NCBI GenBank assembly: GCA_963771885.1
Contig: CAVYVF010000023.1
Location: forward strand, 704,001 to 768,000
Reading direction: 5' to 3'
DNA: 64,000 bases
Source: Candidatus Bathyarchaeota archaeon
Lineage (GTDB): Archaea > Thermoproteota > Bathyarchaeia > TCS64
Of the stretch, positions 7,806-17,006 are shown piece after piece. How positions within the stretch are numbered: position 1 is the first letter of the stretch; every line of letters starts with the position of its first letter. The notes under the pieces were generated by a model that did not search any database, was not told where the DNA came from, and saw nothing but the letters and a program-made list of their open reading frames with translations. The translations under genes were made by a program, and so were the position numbers.

Positions 7806-8498
7806 CTATTTCTTAAGGAGCGCCCTTGTGTACTCCTCGGTGAGCACTCTCATCCTCTCCGCCTGAGGCATCTCCGCCAGCTTGGCGAGCTCGCCGCGGC
7901 GCTTCTCCGCCATGATCTTCAACTCCTCGGGGTGCTCCCTCCACATCTGCTCCTCGAGCACACGCTTCACAACGATCTCAGTGAGCAGCGGGTCAGCTAT
8001 AGGACAACCTTCGAAGTTCTTCCCCTGCCCCATTGTGAGCAGCAGCTCGTTGACAGGGTAGCCGCGGCACGTACCTGGGCGGACGGGGTGTATGGCACAG
8101 AGGTTGCCCCTTAGGAAGGGGCAGGGCTGAGAGACGATGAACGTTCCGTCCCCCATGGGCACGGCATTTACCCTATCCTTCAGCTTCTTGTACTCCATGT
8201 GGAGGGTGTCAGCCACAGTCTGCAGTTCCTCCTTCTTCATCCTGATGCTACCCCTGCTCCTGCAGCAGTTGCCGCAGCGCTGGCAGAGCCTCTGCTGGAG
8301 CGCTATAATCATCGCGACCTCCGTCTCGAGTACGACGCCGAGGCTGCTGACCGCCTTGAGCACGTCCTCCTCCCTGACCGGGGGCATCTTGAGCCTCTTC
8401 TTAGCGAGATCGAGGACGCGAAAGGCGTGTGGGCCGGAGAATGGCTTGAAGTCGGGGCGCGCCAGGAGGCGGTCGAGGGGCGACTTCTCCTCGCTCAT
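7806..8498 (-). CDS. YkgJ-like CxxCxxCC cysteine-cluster protein
   Basis: CQRCGNCC...CPFL...CAIHPVRPGTCRGYP. Confidence 0.85.
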   Translation of the reverse strand: MSEEKSPLDRLLARPDFKPFSGPHAFRVLDLAKKRLKMPPVREEDVLKAVSSLGVVLETEVAMIIALQQRLCQRCGNCCRSRGSIRMKKEELQTVADTLHMEYKKLKDRVNAVPMGDGTFIVSQPCPFLRGNLCAIHPVRPGTCRGYPVNELLLTMGQGKNFEGCPIADPLLTEIVVKRVLEEQMWREHPEELKIMAEKRRGELAKLAEMPQAERMRVLTEEYTRALLKK

Positions 8499-8569
8499 GG
8501 TACGCCAATCAGCTCACGGGGTTATAACCCCATCCATGGCGCGTGTCGCCAGCTACACCTGCCCAAACC

Positions 8570-8578
8570 ATTTAAATA
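8570..8578 (+). promoter_or_regulatory. TATA box of the aromatic operon (predicted TSS about 8598-8602)
   Basis: ATTTAAATA in a GC-rich background, about 45 nt upstream of the uORF start. Confidence 0.6.
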
Positions 8579-8599
8579 GAATATGGGGACCCAACACCG

Positions 8600-8788
8600 T
8601 AGTATCGAGAGAGGTGCAATAAATGCGCCAATTTACCGTAGCTTAAGCCGGAGCAGCGCTCCACACCTAGTTCTAACCACCCGGGTAGCATCCCCGGCGA
8701 TTCAAACCCCAAGCCAAGACGAGTTCAGCTTCTTCGGCTTCCAGGCCAAGGGCCTGTGCTGAAGGAGACCCCGGAGGCACAGGTCTTG
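8600..8788 (+). promoter_or_regulatory. Structured 5' leader, candidate translational attenuator
   Basis: Competing helices 8645-53/8732-40, 8729-38/8758-67 and 8751-60/8776-85; the last overlaps the aroF SD and abuts the start codon. Confidence 0.55.
8623..8646 (+). CDS. Putative leader peptide MRQFTVA
   Basis: ATG CGC CAA TTT ACC GTA GCT TAA preceded by SD GAGGTG at 8611-8616; contains a Phe codon; sits upstream of the Phe/Tyr biosynthesis operon. Confidence 0.55.
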
Positions 8789-9619
8789 TCAAAGCTAGTG
8801 ATATCTCAGAAGATCAGGCTCGCCGTCAAGAACGGGCACGGCGCCGTTAGAATCAGGGTCGGGGACGTAACAATCGGCGGTGACCAACTCACCGTCATGG
8901 CAGGGCCATGCAGCGTCGAGGGCAGGGAGCAGCTGCTCGAAGCGGCCCGCGCCGTAAAGGCGGCTGGTGGTCATATTCTCCGCGGCGGCGCATTCAAGCC
9001 CCGCACCCTCCCCTACAGCTTCCAGGGGCTTGGCGAGGAGGGACTCAAGATGCTCTCCGAGGCCCGCGACGAGACGGGGCTCCCAGTCATCACCGAGGTT
9101 ATGGCCCCTGAAGACGTGGAGCTAGTCGCATCCTACGCCGACATCCTCCAGATCGGGGCGCGCAACATGCAGAACTTCACCCTCCTCAAGACAGTGGGGA
9201 AGTCGGAGAGGCCCGTGATGCTTAAGAGAGGAATGTCTGCAACCGTTGAGGAGTGGCTTGGATGCGCCGAGTACATCCTCAACGAGGGCAACCCCAACGT
9301 CATCCTCTGCGAGCGAGGCATACGCACATACGAGACAATCACGAGGAACACCCTCGACGTCTCAGCGGTGCCCGTGATCAAGCAGCTCAGCGACCTACCC
9401 GTCGTTGTTGACCCATCCCACGGCACGGGGATCAGGAGCCTCGTCGCTCCGATGGCGAAGGCTGGCGTAGCCGCTGGGGCGGACGGCCTCATCATAGAAG
9501 TACACCCCCACCCCGAGAAGGCGCTCAGCGACGGCGACCAAAGCCTCCACCCCGAAGAGTTCGCAGACCTCATGCGCGAGATCGCCCCAATCGCGGGCGC
9601 AGTCGGGAAAAGGATGTAG
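8786..9619 (+). CDS. aroF: DAHP synthase, type I-beta, without N-terminal regulatory domain
   Basis: [35 protein letters not shown] start at 8786 with GGAGG at 8773-8777. Confidence 0.95.
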
Positions 9620-9622
9620 CCC

Positions 9623-10706
9623 ATGAGCCTTGAGTCCATGAGGGCCGCCACGGTCCGCCTAGGCGGGAGGGACTACCCTGTCCTAGCTGGTGCAGAGCTT
9701 CTGGACCGGCTAGGAGAAGCGATCGCCGAGTACATCCCCGGCGCCACGGGGTGCGTGCTGGTCACCTCGCCCCAGGTCGACGCCCTCTACGGGGTGCGCG
9801 CCATGACTTCCCTCGAATCCCTACACCCGGGCAAGGTCACGATCCCCGAGGGAGAGGAGGCGAAGACATGGGACGCCACGGGTGAATTACTCGGGTCACT
9901 CATCAGGCAAGGTCTCGACCGAAAAGGCGTGGTTGTCGCTCTCGGTGGCGGCTCCGTAGGCGACTCCGCCGGCTTCGCCGCATCCCTCTATATGAGGGGA
10001 ATACGTGTCGTCCAAGTACCCACGACGCTCCTCGGGCAGGTTGACAGCGGCGTCGGCGGCAAGACCGCCGTCAACCACCCCGCCGGCAAGAACCTCATAG
10101 GCACATTCCACCAGCCCAGCCTCGTCGCCTGCGACACTGGGCTACTCTCAACACTCCCGAGGCGTGAGCTGCTCTCTGGCCTCGCCGAGGTCGTTAAATA
10201 CGGCGTCATCGCGGACGCCAAGCTCTACGTAGGCGTCGAGACAGAGGCGGAGAAGCTGCTCAGCGCCGACCCCCAGGCGCTGCGATGGGTCGTGGCGCGA
10301 TGCGTCGCGGCGAAAGCCCGCCTAGTCGAATCCGACGAGCGGGACGAAAAGGGCGTCAGAGCAGCGCTAAACTACGGGCACACCATGGGACACGCGGTCG
10401 AGACACTCTCGGGGTACTCGATCCGCCACGGCGAGGCGGTGGCGATCGGCATGGTCGCCGCTTCGCGGGTCGCCATCGCACTCGGGCTGCTCAAGAAGCC
10501 CGACCTCGAACGACAGCTCATACTCCTCGAGAGGCTCGAGCTGCCACACGGAGTCGCCCTACGGCGTCGACGAGGTAATTCCCCTCATGAGGCGGGATAA
10601 GAAGGCGGAGCGTGGCTCGATACGCCTCGTCCTCCCGACGGGGATCGGCGGAGAGCCTGCTATCAGCACCGTCTCTGAGGTGGAGATACGGGGGGCGCTC
10701 GCCTAG
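9623..10706 (+). CDS. aroB: 3-dehydroquinate synthase, frameshifted near 10547 (sequence error or pseudogene)
   Basis: LGGGSVGD, PTTLLGQVDSGVGGK, LNYGHT, HGEAV; the conserved tail MRRDKK..GSIRLVLPTGIG continues in the +1 frame to TAG 10706, abutting the aroD ATG. Confidence 0.92.
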
Positions 10707-11369
10707 ATGGTCAGGATATGTGGCTCTGTCGCCGCAAGAACCACGGGTGCAGCCGTCGAGACGATTCGGGGGCTCGCGAAACCCGACATGGTCGAGCTAC
10801 GCCTCGACTATGCCGAGGAGCGGTTAGACCTCGACAGACTTAGGGAATCAACAAGTACTATACTCGTCGCCACGGCGAGGCTGCCCTCTCAGGGCGGGCG
10901 TTGGGCGGGGGGCGAGGGCGAGCGACAGAGGCTGCTTCTCTCCGCTGCTAAGGCGGGCTTCGACTACGTCGACGTCGAGGACGACTCAAAACAGATCGAG
11001 ACGCTCGTCGAGAAGCTACACGCCTCACGCGCCAGGGTCGTGGTCTCGCGCCACCTCCTCGATAGGACGCCGTACCTCGAAGAGATACTCGAAATGCACG
11101 GCGTGGCGGAGGAGGCGGGTGCCGACGTCGTCAAGATCGTCGGGACGGCATCGTGCCCCGCGGACAACCTGCCGTGCCTCAGCTACCTAGCTCAGAAGCC
11201 CGGCAACGTCAGCTTCGCGATGGGTTCTCACGGCGTTCCCTCTCGCGTACTTTCGCCGCTCATGGGTGGCGCGTGGACATACGCCTCCGCGAGTGAGGTC
11301 GTCGCACCGGGGCAGATGACACTCGAATCGCTGAGGGAGGCGTACCGCCTCATGGGGGCTGAGCCTTGA
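10707..11369 (+). CDS. aroD: Type I 3-dehydroquinate dehydratase
   Basis: VELRLD, TAR..QGG, VVVSRH, ADVVKIV, FAMG, APGQ. Confidence 0.93.
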   Translation: MVRICGSVAARTTGAAVETIRGLAKPDMVELRLDYAEERLDLDRLRESTSTILVATARLPSQGGRWAGGEGERQRLLLSAAKAGFDYVDVEDDSKQIETLVEKLHASRARVVVSRHLLDRTPYLEEILEMHGVAEEAGADVVKIVGTASCPADNLPCLSYLAQKPGNVSFAMGSHGVPSRVLSPLMGGAWTYASASEVVAPGQMTLESLREAYRLMGAEP

Positions 11370-12202
11370 AACGCCTCTTCCTCCTTGGCTACCCCGTGGC
11401 CCACTCACTGAGCCCCGCGATGCAGAACGCCGCATTGAAGGCGCTGGGGCTTAACTACGAGTATGGTCTCATGCCCGTGCACCCTGGGGGACTCGCTACA
11501 CGCGTAGGAGAACTCCGTAGCACGTCTGCAGGCTTCAACGTTACCATCCCACACAAGGTCGCGGTCATCCCTCTCCTTGACTGCCTCGACGAGTCTGCGT
11601 CGGCCGTCGGCGCCGTCAACACGGTCGTAAACCACTACGGCCGCCTCACGGGGTACAATACGGATTGCACAGCCTCAACAAGAGCACTCCGCGAGCGTAA
11701 CGGTGACCTTGGCGGCTCCCGCGTCGTCGTCCTCGGCGCCGGCGGAGCGGCCCGAGCTGTCTCAATGGGGCTTGCGCGGCACGTGGAATGGATTAGGATA
11801 CTCGCTAGGGACGAGGCGAAGGCCCGTGCACTTGCTGACGAGGTTCGCGCCCGGACGGGGGCAAATGTCGAGGGCGGAGGCATCGAAGACGCGGCGGAGG
11901 TCACGCGTGCCGCGGATATCCTAGTCAACGCGACGCCCGTCGGCATGTCACCGAACATAGGCGCCAGCCCAGTGGCTCCCGAGGCGCTCCATGGGGGGCT
12001 CCTCGTCTTCGATCTCGTCTACAATCCCGAGAAGACCCAACTTCTCGCCGACGCCGAGAGGGCGGGGGCGCACATTATCGGGGGGTTGCCTATGCTCGTC
12101 TACCAGGGGGCGGAGGCGTTACGCCTCTGGACCGGGATGGAGGCGCCCGAGGCGCTCATGATGGAGGCGGCGAGGCGCGCCATCGGAGGTGCGGCGACTT
12201 GA
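11366..12202 (+). CDS. aroE: Shikimate dehydrogenase
   Basis: HSLSP, NVTIPHK, GAVNT, YNTD, GAGGAA, DLVYNP. Confidence 0.95.
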   Translation: MKRLFLLGYPVAHSLSPAMQNAALKALGLNYEYGLMPVHPGGLATRVGELRSTSAGFNVTIPHKVAVIPLLDCLDESASAVGAVNTVVNHYGRLTGYNTDCTASTRALRERNGDLGGSRVVVLGAGGAARAVSMGLARHVEWIRILARDEAKARALADEVRARTGANVEGGGIEDAAEVTRAADILVNATPVGMSPNIGASPVAPEALHGGLLVFDLVYNPEKTQLLADAERAGAHIIGGLPMLVYQGAEALRLWTGMEAPEALMMEAARRAIGGAAT

Positions 12203-12708
12203 ACGTCGTAGTATTCGGATTCATGGGCGTCGGCAAGACCACAGTCGGCAGACTGCTCTCCCCGCGCCTCGGTTACAGGTTCGTAGACTCCGACGCCGAG
12301 GCAGAGAGAGAGGCGGGGATGAGGATCGCCGAGGTCTTCGCCGAGAGGGGGGAACCCGCCTTCCGCGAGATAGAGCGACGAGTCATAACACGGCTTAGCC
12401 AAGACGACAAACAGGTGGTAGCCATCGGAGGCGGCGCCGTCCTCGACCCACGCAACGTCGAAGAACTCCGTAAAAACGGAAAGATGGTGCTCCTCACGGC
12501 TAGCCCCGAGGAGATCGGGCTGAGGACACGCGGGGACATCTCGAGACCCCTCCTCGCAGGCGCCGACAAGCTGACATGCATCCGGACACTCCTCGACGAG
12601 AGGCGGGACCGTTACCTCGCCGCGGCGGACATGGTAGTGGACACGAATGGCGTGCCGCCGATACGCGTCGCCGAGGCGATACAAGCCAGGCTGGAGGCAC
12701 ATCTATGA
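12199..12708 (+). CDS. aroK: Shikimate kinase, bacterial P-loop (NMP-kinase) type
   Basis: GFMGVGKTTVG, DSD, GEPAFRE, GGGAV, RPLL. Confidence 0.93.
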   Translation: MNVVVFGFMGVGKTTVGRLLSPRLGYRFVDSDAEAEREAGMRIAEVFAERGEPAFREIERRVITRLSQDDKQVVAIGGGAVLDPRNVEELRKNGKMVLLTASPEEIGLRTRGDISRPLLAGADKLTCIRTLLDERRDRYLAAADMVVDTNGVPPIRVAEAIQARLEAHL

Positions 12709-13964
12709 GTGTCAAGATACACCCCTCAACGGTGTCCGGCTCAGTCGCCGCCCCGCCCTCGAAGAGCATGACCCACCGCGCCTTCGTGCTCGCAGCGCTG
12801 GCTGATGGGAGGAGCATTATACGCAACCCGCTCACCGCCGACGACACCGAGGCCACCTCACGCGTGCTCGCGGGGCTCGGCGTGGAGACACACAGGGGCA
12901 GCGAGTGGGTTGTGGATGGTGGCCACCTCCACGCCCCCTCTGAAACACTTGACTGCGGCGAGTCCGGGACGACACTCCGCTTCATGGCGGCTGCCTGCGC
13001 CCTCGTCGACGGCAACTGTCAACTCGCCGGCGGCCCCTCACTCTCCTCGCGCCCCGTTGGTCCGTTGCTTGGCGCCCTCGAACAGATAGGCGTGCGCGGT
13101 GAAAGCCAAGGCGGATTGCCCCCAGTGACGATTAGGGGGACGGGGCACATCAGGGGAGGCGAAGCCCGGCTACCCGGAGACGTAAGCAGCCAGTTCGTCT
13201 CAGCGCTCCTAACCGTTGCCCCCCTCGCTGACGCCTCCGTGAAGATTACACTGACGACCCCGCTCGAGTCGCGCCCCTACGTGTCGATGACAGTGGACGC
13301 GATGCGCGCCTTCGGCGTCGAGGTTGAGCACACGCTGGACATGACGCGCCTGATGGCGCCTATAAGACCTTACAAGGCAACGACGGTCGTCGTCGAGGGG
13401 GACTGGTCGTCGGCATCCTACCCACTCGCAGCGGGAGCGATGGTTGGCGAAGCGAGGGTGACAGGGCTGAACCACGCGAGCTCGCAGGCCGACAAGGTGA
13501 TAATCACGATACTCGCGCAGATGGGCGTCGAAGTGAGAGCGCGCAGTGACTCAGTAACCGTAAGGTCGTCGAAGTTGAAGTGCATCGAGTCTGACCTCAG
13601 CGACTGCCCCGACCTATTCCCCGTCGTCTCCGCGCTCTGCGCCGCCTCCGAGGGTAAGAGCCGCCTCACAGGGCTCGGGCGGCTCCGGTTCAAGGAGTCG
13701 GACAGGGTCGCTGCGATGGCGGAGGGTCTCACGCGGATGGGTGCCAAGGTGAGCTACGATGCAGACTCAGCGACGATAATGGGCGGGAGGCTGCGTGGTG
13801 CAGAGGTCGACCCGTGGGGCGACCACAGGATAGCCATGTCCCTCGCCGTCCTTGCGCTGAGGGCGGAGGGAGAAACAATCATCAAAAACGCGGGGTGCGT
13901 CTCAAAGTCCTACCCGGGATTTTGGAGCGACCTCGCGGCACTGGGAGGAAGAGTAGAGCATTGA
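12705..13964 (+). CDS. aroA: EPSP synthase (3-phosphoshikimate 1-carboxyvinyltransferase)
   Basis: PPSKSMTHR, CGESGTTLRF, SSQFVS, KESDR, DHRIAM; start ATG 12705. Confidence 0.96.
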   Translation: MSVKIHPSTVSGSVAAPPSKSMTHRAFVLAALADGRSIIRNPLTADDTEATSRVLAGLGVETHRGSEWVVDGGHLHAPSETLDCGESGTTLRFMAAACALVDGNCQLAGGPSLSSRPVGPLLGALEQIGVRGESQGGLPPVTIRGTGHIRGGEARLPGDVSSQFVSALLTVAPLADASVKITLTTPLESRPYVSMTVDAMRAFGVEVEHTLDMTRLMAPIRPYKATTVVVEGDWSSASYPLAAGAMVGEARVTGLNHASSQADKVIITILAQMGVEVRARSDSVTVRSSKLKCIESDLSDCPDLFPVVSALCAASEGKSRLTGLGRLRFKESDRVAAMAEGLTRMGAKVSYDADSATIMGGRLRGAEVDPWGDHRIAMSLAVLALRAEGETIIKNAGCVSKSYPGFWSDLAALGGRVEH

Positions 13965-15052
13965 GCAACAGCATTGGAACCGTTTTCAGGGTTACAAGCG
14001 TCGGTGAGAGCCACGGTAAGTGCGTAGGCACCGTCATAGACGGGTGCCCCGCAGGGCTCAAGCTGGATTACGACGCGCTCGACCGCGAGATGGCAAGGAG
14101 ACGCCCAGGCGCCAGCGCGGTCACCACAAGCAGGAACGAGGAGGACGCCGTCGAAGTGCTCTCCGGCGTACACGAGGGGCATACCACCGGGGCGCCAATT
14201 CTCATGCTCACATGGAACCGCGACATCGACTCATCCAAGTACGACGCCATCAGGGATACGCCACGGCCAGGTCACGCCGACTACGCGACACGCGCCCGTT
14301 ACGGCGGATTCGCCGACCACCGCGGGGGCGGTAGGGCATCCGGTAGGATAACCGCAGGATTCGTCATGGCGGGCGCTGTCGCTAAGCAGCTCATCGCCAC
14401 GATAGGTGTTGAGGTGCACTCATACACGCGCGCCATAGGAGGCGTTGAAGCAACCGGCCCACTTGACTGGAGGGGCGCCGCGGGGAGCATAGTCCGCTGC
14501 CCAGACACCGCCTCTTCCACCAGGATGGTCGAGGTCATCGAGGAAGCGAGTCGCGGCGGCGACAGCGTCGGTGGTGAGGTGGAGTGCGTCGCAACTGGGC
14601 TCCCCGCGGGCGTCGGGCAGCCCGTCTTCGACACCATCGAGGGCGACATCGCCAAGGCCCTCTTCGCTGTCCCAGCCGTCAAGGCAGTCGAGTTCGGCGC
14701 AGGGTCACGTCTAGCTGCCATGAGAGGGAGCGAGGCGAACGACCCTTATGTGGTCGAGGGCGGGCGAGTCAACACCGCATCGAATAACTCGGGCGGCGTG
14801 CTCGGGGGGGTCACTAGCGGCGCACCCGTCGTCGTGCGCGCCTACTTCAAACCGACTCCAAGCATACCGCGTCCCCAGAGAACCGTCGACCTCGCATTGG
14901 TAAGGGAGGCCGAGATACGCATAGCGGGACGCCACGACCCATGCGTTGTCCCACGCGCCGTCCCCGTCGTCGAGGCGATGGTAGCCATCGTGCTCGCCGA
15001 CCAAGCCCTGAGGAGGGGCATCATACCACAGGTTCTAGGTGAGGGAGTATGA
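13961..15052 (+). CDS. aroC: Chorismate synthase
   Basis: GESHG, RRPG, RPGHAD, GGGRASGR, KPTPSI, GRHDPC; TTG start overlaps the aroA stop. Confidence 0.96.
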   Translation: MSNSIGTVFRVTSVGESHGKCVGTVIDGCPAGLKLDYDALDREMARRRPGASAVTTSRNEEDAVEVLSGVHEGHTTGAPILMLTWNRDIDSSKYDAIRDTPRPGHADYATRARYGGFADHRGGGRASGRITAGFVMAGAVAKQLIATIGVEVHSYTRAIGGVEATGPLDWRGAAGSIVRCPDTASSTRMVEVIEEASRGGDSVGGEVECVATGLPAGVGQPVFDTIEGDIAKALFAVPAVKAVEFGAGSRLAAMRGSEANDPYVVEGGRVNTASNNSGGVLGGVTSGAPVVVRAYFKPTPSIPRPQRTVDLALVREAEIRIAGRHDPCVVPRAVPVVEAMVAIVLADQALRRGIIPQVLGEGV

Positions 15053-15321
15053 CGTACGAGGAAAAGATCGCACCCCACAGGAAAGAGATAGACCGGCTCA
15101 ACGCCGAGATAATCGACAGGCTCGCCAAGCGCGTCGAGGTCGCGAGGGCCATCGCAGAGGTGAAGAGGCGCCACGGGAGACCTGTTGTCGACGCAGCTCG
15201 CGAGCGCATAGTACTGGATCAGGCTAGGGCGAGAGCCGCTGAGAGGGGACTCGACCCCGATGGCGCCGAGCGCGTCTTCCGCGCCATTATCGACGTGTGC
15301 GTCGAGGCGGAGGAACATTGA
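15049..15321 (+). CDS. Chorismate mutase (AroQ class)
   Basis: RKEIDRLNAEIIDRLAKR...K...PVVDAARE. Confidence 0.9.
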   Translation: MTYEEKIAPHRKEIDRLNAEIIDRLAKRVEVARAIAEVKRRHGRPVVDAARERIVLDQARARAAERGLDPDGAERVFRAIIDVCVEAEEH

Positions 15322-16130
15322 TGAGGATCGCCTATCAAGGCGTCCCCGGCGCCTACAGCGAGGCGGCTATAATCCAGCACTGGGGCTTATCCGCCGAGCC
15401 CGTTCCCAGGCCCTACTTGGAGGATATATTCTCTATCGTCGAGTCCGGGGAGGTCGACGCCGGGTTAGTCCCGGTCGAGAACACCCTTGAGGGCAGCATA
15501 ACCAGGACATACGACCTTCTTAACGAGCGTAGCCTCACGGTGCTCGGTGAAACCGTGTTCCGAGTAGTCCACTGCCTCATAGCGAACCCGGGGGTCAAAC
15601 CCGGAGACGTGAGGCGGGTCTACTCCCACCCCCAAGCCCTCGGGCAGGTGCGTGGCTACCTCGCCGCACACGGCTACGAGGCGGTCAACTACTATGACAC
15701 CGCCGGCGCCGTGAAGATGATCCGTGACGAGGGGCTGAGTGACGCCGCTGCAATAGCAAGCAGAAGTGCCGCCAAGATATACGGTGCGAACATCCTCGCC
15801 GAGGGCGTCGAGGATAAGAACGAGAACTATACCCGCTTCCTCCACGTGGGACGCGGCTCCACCGAGCCGACGGGGCGAGACAAGACGAGCCTCGCATTCA
15901 CCGTAGACCATAGACCAGGCACACTCATAGCCGCGCTGCGCGCCTTCGCCGACAGGGACCTCAACCTCACCAAGATAGAGTCGCGCCCCTACCCCGGGAG
16001 GCCATGGGAATACTTCTTCTTCATAGACTTCGAGGGGCACATCGGTGACTCAGTCAGCGAGGAGGCGCTCAGCGAACTGGCGGATTACGCGGGCAGTCTC
16101 AAGGTCCTCGGCTCCTACCCTCGCGCATAG
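15321..16130 (+). CDS. pheA: Prephenate dehydratase with ACT domain
   Basis: AYQGVPGAYSE, PVENTLEG, SHPQA, NYTRF, LTKIESRP, LGSYP. Confidence 0.95.
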   Translation: MRIAYQGVPGAYSEAAIIQHWGLSAEPVPRPYLEDIFSIVESGEVDAGLVPVENTLEGSITRTYDLLNERSLTVLGETVFRVVHCLIANPGVKPGDVRRVYSHPQALGQVRGYLAAHGYEAVNYYDTAGAVKMIRDEGLSDAAAIASRSAAKIYGANILAEGVEDKNENYTRFLHVGRGSTEPTGRDKTSLAFTVDHRPGTLIAALRAFADRDLNLTKIESRPYPGRPWEYFFFIDFEGHIGDSVSEEALSELADYAGSLKVLGSYPRA

Positions 16131-16190
16131 GCAGCAGGGCCTGCCCTCAAGGCAGAAATATGCTCCATCAGGGATACAATCGGACACGTC

Positions 16191-17006
16191 TTGAAGGCTG
16201 CGGTCGTAGGCGCGAAGGGGGGCATGGGCGGCTGGCTAGTACACCACCTCGCAACCCTAGGCCACGAAGTCGCCGCGGTCGACACACGCACCGATCCACT
16301 CGAACAGCTCCACGGGTTCGACCTTGTCGTCGTGTCTGTGCCGATCAGCGCGACGCCCGGCGTCATCCGTGTTGTTGCCACGAAGATGAGGCGCGGCACG
16401 ATCCTTGCCGAGGTGGCCAGCCTCAAGGAAGAAAGCCACAAGGCACTCTCCATCGTGTCATGCTTAGGGCTCACGCCCCTCTGTATTCACCCCATATTCG
16501 GGCCATCGACGGATTCTCTCAGTGGTAGGGTGGTCGCGGTTGTCCCCGTTGTTGACGCCGAAGAGGAGGCAGGATTGGCCCGGTCGCTTTTCCCCGGCGC
16601 CGATGTCGTCACGCTCCCCGCGGCTCGCCACGACCGTTGCATGGCCGCCGTTCTCTCCCTCCCCTACGCTGTCAACCTCGCCCTCTCCCGCGTCCTCGGA
16701 GGCGAGGACCTAAAACTCGCATCACAGATGGCGGGCTCCACATTCGCAGTGCAGTACACGCTCGCCCAGAGCGTCGCGGGGGAGAGCCCCACACTTACAC
16801 GCGACCTACTTAGCTGTAACGCCTCGCTTGTGCCGCTTCTGAGGGCGTTCGAGGATGCCCTGGGGGATGTTGTCTGGGCGTCGGGTGACGATGCTCGGTT
16901 CTCCTCACTCCACACCGAGATCATAGATGTGCTATCCCGAGACCATTCCTTCGCGGGGGCGAATGGGCGCAGGCAGCGTGCCCATATGGCGGTCGCTGGT
17001 GCCTAG
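16191..17006 (+). CDS. tyrA: Prephenate/arogenate dehydrogenase
   Basis: Rossmann GAKGGMG, EVASLK, IHPIFGP, HDRCMA. Confidence 0.85.
   Translation: MKAAVVGAKGGMGGWLVHHLATLGHEVAAVDTRTDPLEQLHGFDLVVVSVPISATPGVIRVVATKMRRGTILAEVASLKEESHKALSIVSCLGLTPLCIHPIFGPSTDSLSGRVVAVVPVVDAEEEAGLARSLFPGADVVTLPAARHDRCMAAVLSLPYAVNLALSRVLGGEDLKLASQMAGSTFAVQYTLAQSVAGESPTLTRDLLSCNASLVPLLRAFEDALGDVVWASGDDARFSSLHTEIIDVLSRDHSFAGANGRRQRAHMAVAGA

Follow-up and report, generated by a model that had tools for sequence, protein, structure and literature searches.

A shortage of aromatic amino acids, we propose at a probability of roughly two in three, causes ribosomes to slip by -1 nucleotide within a short upstream open reading frame (uORF), and this slip would gate synthesis of the activator Tar and, in the DNA studied here, translation of aroF. 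This DNA, referred to as the window, is the 64,000-nt stretch at positions 704,001 to 768,000 (forward strand) of contig CAVYVF010000023.1, and all coordinates below are positions in it. At the level of sequence, comparative data show a 0-frame start, a selected CAA plus aromatic codon, a translated -1 frame that has no start of its own, and a -1 stop at the aroF ribosome-binding site (RBS) or start; tRNA slippage as the entry into that frame, starvation as the condition that raises the slip and RBS opening as the output are what we infer. In broader terms, it appears rather likely that archaea from Thermococcales to Bathyarchaeia share a modular sensor of the form SD-start-(1 to 3 codons)-C-CAA-aromatic codon (SD, Shine-Dalgarno sequence) that makes productive use of a starvation-induced -1 slip, with tandem Phe, Trp and Tyr units acting as an OR gate on Tar, and that this sensor was re-used as a stand-alone aroF leader.

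The aroF leader and its open -1 frame

The leader and the operon behind it comprise the following features.

8546..8565, + strand: Tar-box-like palindrome (6-N8-6), 5 nt 5' of the TATA box, absent from the original prediction
8571..8578, + strand: TATA box (originally given as 8570-78), its position conserved among relatives
8611..8616, + strand: SD of the uORF (GAGGTG), ending 11 nt 5' of the C-CAA site
8623..8646, + strand: 0-frame uORF MRQFTVA*, with the Phe codon UUU at 8632-34
8628..8634, + strand: putative site of the -1 shift, C-CAA-UUU, with Gln in the P site and Phe in the A site (CCA-AUU in the -1 frame)
8628..8762, + strand: -1 frame leader ORF, 44 codons plus UGA, without AUG, GUG or UUG
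8650..8662, + strand: short GGAGC hairpin, which the GC-rich group of the genus conserves and which competes with segment 1 of a predicted RNA switch
8724..8741, + strand: cluster of four Phe codons near the end of the -1 frame
8751..8785, + strand: hairpin over the aroF SD (GGAGG, 8773-77), containing the -1 stop UGA at 8760-62
8786..9619, + strand: aroF, DAHP synthase without a regulatory domain, starting with TTG at 8786
9623..17006, + strand: remainder of the operon (aroB, aroD, aroE, aroK, aroA, aroC, chorismate mutase, prephenate dehydratase, prephenate dehydrogenase)

The original prediction had placed the TATA box, SD, uORF, UUU codon, RNA segments 1 to 4 and TTG correctly, and it had proposed control of an operon whose DAHP synthase lacks allostery, which our data support. 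Given that just ~26 residues precede its catalytic domain, AroF has no ACT/CM domain. Transcription would start near 8599. A GTG at 8756 was rejected as the aroF start because it is not conserved, and so was an in-frame AUG at 8583 as the start of the -1 ORF, which lies 5' of the presumed transcription start and is not conserved even in the closest relative. Contigs from public-run RNA libraries cover 8696-9076 in one case and 8409-8643 in another, the latter of which may be DNA, since the promoter lies within it. No indels are listed in these contigs, and because contigs lose rare variants, they neither support nor rule out transcriptional slippage. A scan with Rfam covariance models (riboswitch, T-box), taken to E = 10, gave no match over the leader, and no relatives of the locus were found among viral contigs.

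In the promoter, a degenerate Tar-type box precedes the TATA box at 8546-65 (binding predicted from sequence), at a 5-nt spacing equal to that in the T. kodakarensis trp promoter oligo, and this palindrome is probably an activator site. The Tar-box-like pattern was present in 65 of 133 promoters, versus a mean of 0.37 and a maximum of 3 in shuffles, and in the left half of these sites, which the pattern left unconstrained, position 3 was G in 64/65 and position 6 was A in 59/65. Tar-box-like sites also precede TATA-like sequences at G000:C7:112264, C22:201487 and C23:618920, which are candidate regulon members; one of the three lies before a small protein resembling an ACT domain. Upstream of the leader, a perfect palindrome around TTATAA (8518-8531, both strands) is located ~25 nt 5' of the divergent gene 7806-8498 (CxxCxxCC family) and is likely the TATA box of that gene, which would have a leaderless mRNA. 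Within the operon, the aroB ORF ends at 10600, where its match stops at position 292 of 344 of TIGR01357 (10600-10707), possibly owing to a frameshift or assembly error at the 3' end.

The head of the uORF, an SD-led AUG-CGC-CAA-UUY, is conserved far above chance. Among 12 same-genus aroF loci picked by protein match, 11 orthologues carry SD-AUG-CGC-CAA-UUU, and the contig of the twelfth is cut short. A search for the SD-led AUG-CGC-CAA pattern that left codon 4 unconstrained found it in 36 of the 70 genomes from the same family and in 4 of the 330 remaining ones (control, 1 match in 401 genomes), and codon 4 was UUC (15) or UUU (11) at all 26 same-family loci fetched. The GGUG core of the SD is invariant in the leader alignment. 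The uORF spans 5 to 7 codons in all 23 nonredundant genus leaders and 4 to 16 codons in the 26 family loci, and it holds a single Phe codon, not a regulatory codon run, in 23/23 leaders. The SD-led uORF with a cognate Phe codon, as originally predicted, is thus borne out across the genus leaders and the 26 family loci, and the conservation of codon 4 supports this codon as the likely sensor. The same cassette is kept in genus g8, in leaders with none of segments 1 to 4, and it also precedes genes without any leader. We left out two loci at contig ends (L010, L035) and, as chance matches with neither aroF nor Tar, 10 non-archaeal pattern matches and L074-L077; 12 metagenome leaders were chosen by the head motif and therefore count for the openness of the frame but not for the motif. 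A loose cassette scan of this genome, for rows with an aromatic codon, returned the aroF leader, two Tar paralogues, one chance-looking intragenic match and no others.

The -1 frame, which had been missed earlier, opens at the Gln-Phe codons and runs for 44 codons to the UGA inside the SD hairpin. In the 23 nonredundant leaders (160 to 217 nt, 25 to 63% GC), frames 0, -1 and +1 contain 98, 2 and 56 stops, respectively, and both -1 stops fall in one leader carrying a 1-nt insertion. Two of the 23 have a broken frame, namely, L006 (+1 nt) and L007 (-1 nt near the end; the near-identical L026 is intact). The frame is kept open across changes in leader length, with a probability of openness in shuffles of 0.02 to 0.06 for the divergent AT-rich leaders. 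It ends 21 to 27 nt 5' of aroF in 21/23 leaders; in genus g8 (15 leaders), it extends over 53 to 57 codons to the aroF start, with the stop one base after the aroF AUG in 13/15 and 3 nt before it in 2/15. In one leader (L088, G068:C121), the +1 frame is open from the uORF into aroF over 333 codons, probably by chance.

The peptide encoded by this frame is weakly constrained (pN/pS 0.78), the codon-position bias in the leader is not significant (p 0.38), and the -1 ORF of the window has no Pfam match. A functional leader peptide was rejected on the grounds of weak constraint and no Pfam match, and what counts seems to be the passage of the ribosome, since the peptide itself is barely constrained. 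With a ribosome on the -1 stop, the energy predicted for opening the aroF RBS drops from 9.6 to 4.3 kcal/mol in the window and the median from 10.2 to 4.9, a decrease that is partly built in because the ribosome footprint covers a hairpin arm. Phe makes up 19.6% of the last 16 residues of the -1 frame in genus leaders, versus 0.5% of its middle, and this Phe-rich tail is absent from the g8 leaders. The four Phe codons at 8724..8741 might act as a second sensor or a U-rich signal; a stall there that opens the hairpin was rejected, as it does not reach the hairpin and has little predicted effect (median, 9.7 versus 10.2).

Under the proposed mechanism, translation would begin at the SD-led AUG with Met-Arg-Gln. 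If Phe is abundant, UUU would be decoded and the ribosome would stop at codon 8, giving MRQFTVA as the default product and leaving the aroF RBS hairpin closed. With Phe-tRNA in short supply, the A site would stand empty and the peptidyl-tRNA-Gln could slip from CAA to CCA, helped by an initiation SD still paired with the ribosome; AUU would then be read as Ile, and 44 codons would lead to the UGA inside the hairpin, where the ribosome would open the aroF RBS and couple into the operon. The cassette would have been inherited from the 5' end of genes of the Tar (TK0271) family, in which the identical slip would make the protein itself.

Re-pairing of tRNA-Gln from CAA to CCA keeps positions 1 and 3 (two of three bases), so that the P-site tRNA can re-pair next to a limiting A-site codon, as in hungry-codon slippage, and the frame transition is conserved, with coding selection in the frame entered, as in programmed -1 frameshifting. 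The canonical X-XXY-YYZ heptamer is absent, the site being C-CAA-UWY, and no stimulatory structure lies 5 to 9 nt downstream, the nearest conserved hairpin, seen in the GC-rich group, starting 15 nt after the Phe codon. Single-tRNA slippage under aminoacyl-tRNA limitation needs no 3' structure (PMC8211752), and for SD-stimulated -1 shifts, spacings of 9 to 14 nt and SD hybrids lasting a few codons are described (PMC5009743). Since the uORF SD ends 11 nt before C-CAA, it may also serve to pull the ribosome back.

The cassette in Tar-like regulator genes

At 11 of the 26 family loci, the -1 frame is itself the gene of a Tar-like protein (wHTH-transketolase N subunit), with 377 to 379 codons in the 9 complete ones, and the first in-frame start of these 11 genes lies at least 35 codons in, at no fixed place. 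The N-terminal 24 codons of 22 Tar-like genes have a pN/pS of 0.24 in the -1 frame versus 1.17 and 3.83 in the others and are, as judged from these ratios, under purifying selection in the -1 frame only. With the NF053753 profile, the thermococcal protein P0301 scores 159 bits (cutoff, 130) and the bathyarchaeal P0016 scores 81 bits (E 5e-23), below the cutoff; P0301 and P0002 are 42% identical. AT-rich leaders of the genus retain recognizable pieces of the Tar-like N terminus (L011 versus L098), and the most plausible origin of the window leader is therefore the 5' end of a Tar-like gene, of which it would be a remnant.

A Pro-Ile head was found in 84 of 85 strong, distinct DNA matches to the Tar family, counts that are not independent, as one family contributes most of the 84 genes and switches between Tyr and Phe number just ~3 on a quick tree. 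The set left out matches under 60 bits and L183, whose head is out of frame with its body, and of the 120 matches of one search, 90 were covered. The Pro of the head is CCA at 91 of 92 sites (24/208 in gene bodies), its Ile is AUC at 0 of 92 (208/521 in gene bodies), and the codon after Pro-Ile begins with U or C at all 92. With the head codons fixed in this way, CAA in the AUG frame is succeeded by a Tyr codon at 53 sites and a Phe codon at 38 (together 91/92), and the codon preceding CAA ends in C at 92/92, over six different codons. An SD-led AUG, GUG or UUG lies 2 to 4 codons 5' of CAA in 75 of 84 Tar-family genes. Between the estimated transcription start and Pro-Ile there is no in-frame start in 73/84, while 11/84 have an in-frame GUG or AUG near the transcription start. 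The SD spacing is 11 to 14 nt in 43/84 genes and 18 nt in 15, and 18 genes have no SD within 25 nt. All of the best six matches from other lineages contain the cassette, four of them combining a Tyr site with a Phe site, and in two of the six (G650, G748), a -1-frame stop stands directly 5' of Pro-Ile. Annotated protein N termini are erratic 5' of Pro-Ile, and those of the Tar family are probably misannotated.

This genome contains two Tar-like cassette genes, G000:C23:538090 (L104) and G000:C2:453816 (L109), neither of which adjoins aro genes; one is Tyr headed and precedes a probable HerA-like ATPase, and one is Phe headed and precedes an unrelated 369-codon gene. Pro-Thr heads occur in P0127, P0131, P0137, P0164 and P0259, and some distant family proteins have Pro-Thr or Pro-Leu (known as protein only); Pro-Thr implies a nonaromatic codon after CAA and perhaps sensors for other amino acids. 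A distant wHTH group (L211-L220, L222-L225, L229, L230), often located before a transporter-like gene, has a stop just 5' of a KVSAFS-like head and seems to be without an in-frame start, possibly forming a second recoded or non-AUG family. Another distant wHTH group (L207, L208, L210, L219) has an upstream in-frame stop, an [FH]AGIV head and no obvious Met.

In Thermococcus kodakarensis, Tar (TK0271) is encoded by the first gene of the aro operon and is a wHTH activator with a 6-N8-6 box before TATA; lack of any one of Trp, Tyr and Phe induces all three operons, and these amino acids had no effect on Tar binding, the authors leaving the sensing open in their Discussion (PMC6737238). TK0271 primers printed there contain a tandem of C-CAA-UGG and then C-CAA-UA, each after an out-of-frame AUG, and it is the -1 frame of the C-CAA-UGG unit that supplies the AUG annotated as the TK0271 start. 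When translated further 5', six thermococcal homologues have three D-x-[PL]-P-[IM]-like repeats, which could represent modules for Phe, Trp and Tyr, with a presumptive assignment of the first. The Thermococcus case, built on published primers and protein N termini, is weakened by the fact that an in-frame AUG could serve ordinary initiation.

Alternative routes from the Phe codon to aroF

The Phe codon is probably connected to aroF by a change of reading frame rather than by an RNA switch. Ribosomes might reach the -1 frame with no slippage if they stalled at the hungry aromatic codon, lost their peptidyl-tRNA by drop-off and re-initiated at the overlapping AUU, AUA or AUG. This course of events fits much of the data, since all -1 codons at the site are AUN and each of them (AUU, AUA, AUG) is a near-cognate or true start, the Thermococcus Trp unit yielding a true AUG. 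AUC, a poor start codon, never occurs; its absence is, however, explained equally well by the aromatic codon. The fixed C before CAA (92/92, six codons) is needed for tRNA-Gln re-pairing but not for re-initiation, and the SD lies at least 14 nt from the AUN codon, so that we consider re-initiation unlikely.

The same frameshift could have a transcriptional output, if FttA/aCPSF1 cut and terminated the untranslated leader at the U-rich tail and shifted ribosomes protected it. U-rich RNA is the preferred substrate of FttA, which ribosomes have been hypothesized to exclude (PMC11616081); the tails are U enriched in most genus leaders, with oligo-U in L011 and L025. The tail in the window, in contrast, has no U run of more than 2, its Phe codons stand in the -1 frame (4/0/0), and in g8 the -1 stop and the start region of aroF overlap in the manner of translational coupling, which makes a terminating output improbable.

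Even less probable is direct non-AUG initiation in the -1 frame (at AUA 8619 or AUU 8631) with a uORF that merely competes and no sensing at codon 4. The AU of the spacer is conserved 5' of aroF leaders, partly through the choice of pattern, but such initiation gives no reason for a 0-frame codon restricted to Phe and Tyr yet free to vary synonymously, G650 and G748 have their -1-frame stop just 5' of Pro-Ile, and the SD spacing fits the AUG. We give still less credence to a cassette that is active in Tar genes and a leaky vestige here, its -1 frame providing constant low coupling: the nearly unconstrained peptide and the two broken leaders fit a vestige, whereas the head is invariant and the frame has been kept through many indels after its coding role was lost.

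The original prediction had a ribosome stalled at the Phe codon mask segment 1, permit pairing of segments 2 and 3, and thereby free the aroF SD. Helices 1:2, 2:3 and 3:4 can all form in this single sequence, whose leader fold is modestly better than shuffles (z = -1.84; 12 of 200 shuffles equally good). Across 20 alignable leaders, the mutually exclusive helices are not conserved: helix 1:2 is intact in 6/20 (74% of cells paired, no two-sided change), and 2:3 is intact in 2/20, despite three pairs with two-sided change. The SD-sequestering 3:4 hairpin (8751..8785) fared better, being intact in 16/20, with 89% of cells paired and no two-sided change, and is present in the RNAalifold consensus. 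The GGAGC hairpin overlapping segment 1 is intact in 20/20 (98% of cells paired, one two-sided change). Masking the uORF region (8611-8649) changes the aroF RBS opening energy from 9.6 to only 9.0 kcal/mol, and the median of the 23 leaders stays at 10.2, an outcome that the original prediction had itself listed as refuting. Alignment of orthologues thus kept the SD-led uORF with its Phe codon but not helices 1:2 and 2:3, so that uORF, Phe codon, 3:4 hairpin and operon control remain from the earlier proposal and the choice between 1:2 and 2:3 does not. With two helices that are rarely intact, masking without effect and segments missing in g8, a four-segment switch is the most improbable of the readings, even though its helices are formally possible in the window and 2:3 has its three two-sided pairs.

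Comparison with known systems

As an amino acid-sensing device, the proposed frameshift mechanism would be new, with parts that have bacterial analogues; a literature search with thin coverage of subscription journals found no account of it. PMC6737238 deals only with transcriptional activation and E4P release and does not contain the word frameshift. If true, the mechanism would answer how T. kodakarensis senses a lack of Trp, Tyr or Phe even though Tar binds none of them (PMC6737238), and since this organism has genetics, the model is directly testable. The window leader would descend from the 5' end of a gene such as Tar/TK0271 (PMC6737238, NF053753), with no Tar coding region here.

Among bacterial systems, the pheL and trpL attenuators likewise sense supply by leader translation, in the case of Phe 5' of Phe biosynthesis genes, but they use codon runs and alternative helices, and a +1 shift in pheL was judged incidental, which calls for caution in the present reading (PMC3082878). 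The ketolide-induced frameshift in ermCL also occurs in a short leader, lets the ribosome enter the spacer, where the mRNA is unfolded and the start downstream becomes accessible (PMC5009743); its trigger is an antibiotic and its host bacterial, whereas here, in archaea, the trigger would be an A site left empty at an aromatic codon (codons 3 and 4). RF2 (prfB) and antizyme share a short 0-frame ORF, a functional protein in the new frame and a shift that is both sensor and effector, and prfB also has the SD stimulation proposed here; both are +1 shifts that sense release factor or polyamines, not amino acid supply.

Hungry-codon -1 slippage (Gallant; dnaX) resembles our model in the slip of a single P-site tRNA next to a vacant A site with no 3' structure, but it has been described as a starvation artefact, unlike the productive use proposed here (PMC8211752, PMC5009743). 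A 2016 review states that no hungry-codon shift making a starvation-specific functional product was known (PMC5009743), an example that the present system would supply. With it, hungry-codon frameshifting would have a first case that is programmed and productive, and archaea would have an amino acid sensor that works through translation. The -1 frameshift in fucA1 of Saccharolobus solfataricus likewise occurs in an archaeal cellular gene, but at a canonical heptamer in midgene that is not conserved across relatives and has no known nutrient sensing. Given as the sole reported -1 case in archaeal cellular genes by a 2021 review (PMC8211752), it would be joined by a conserved, regulatory one.
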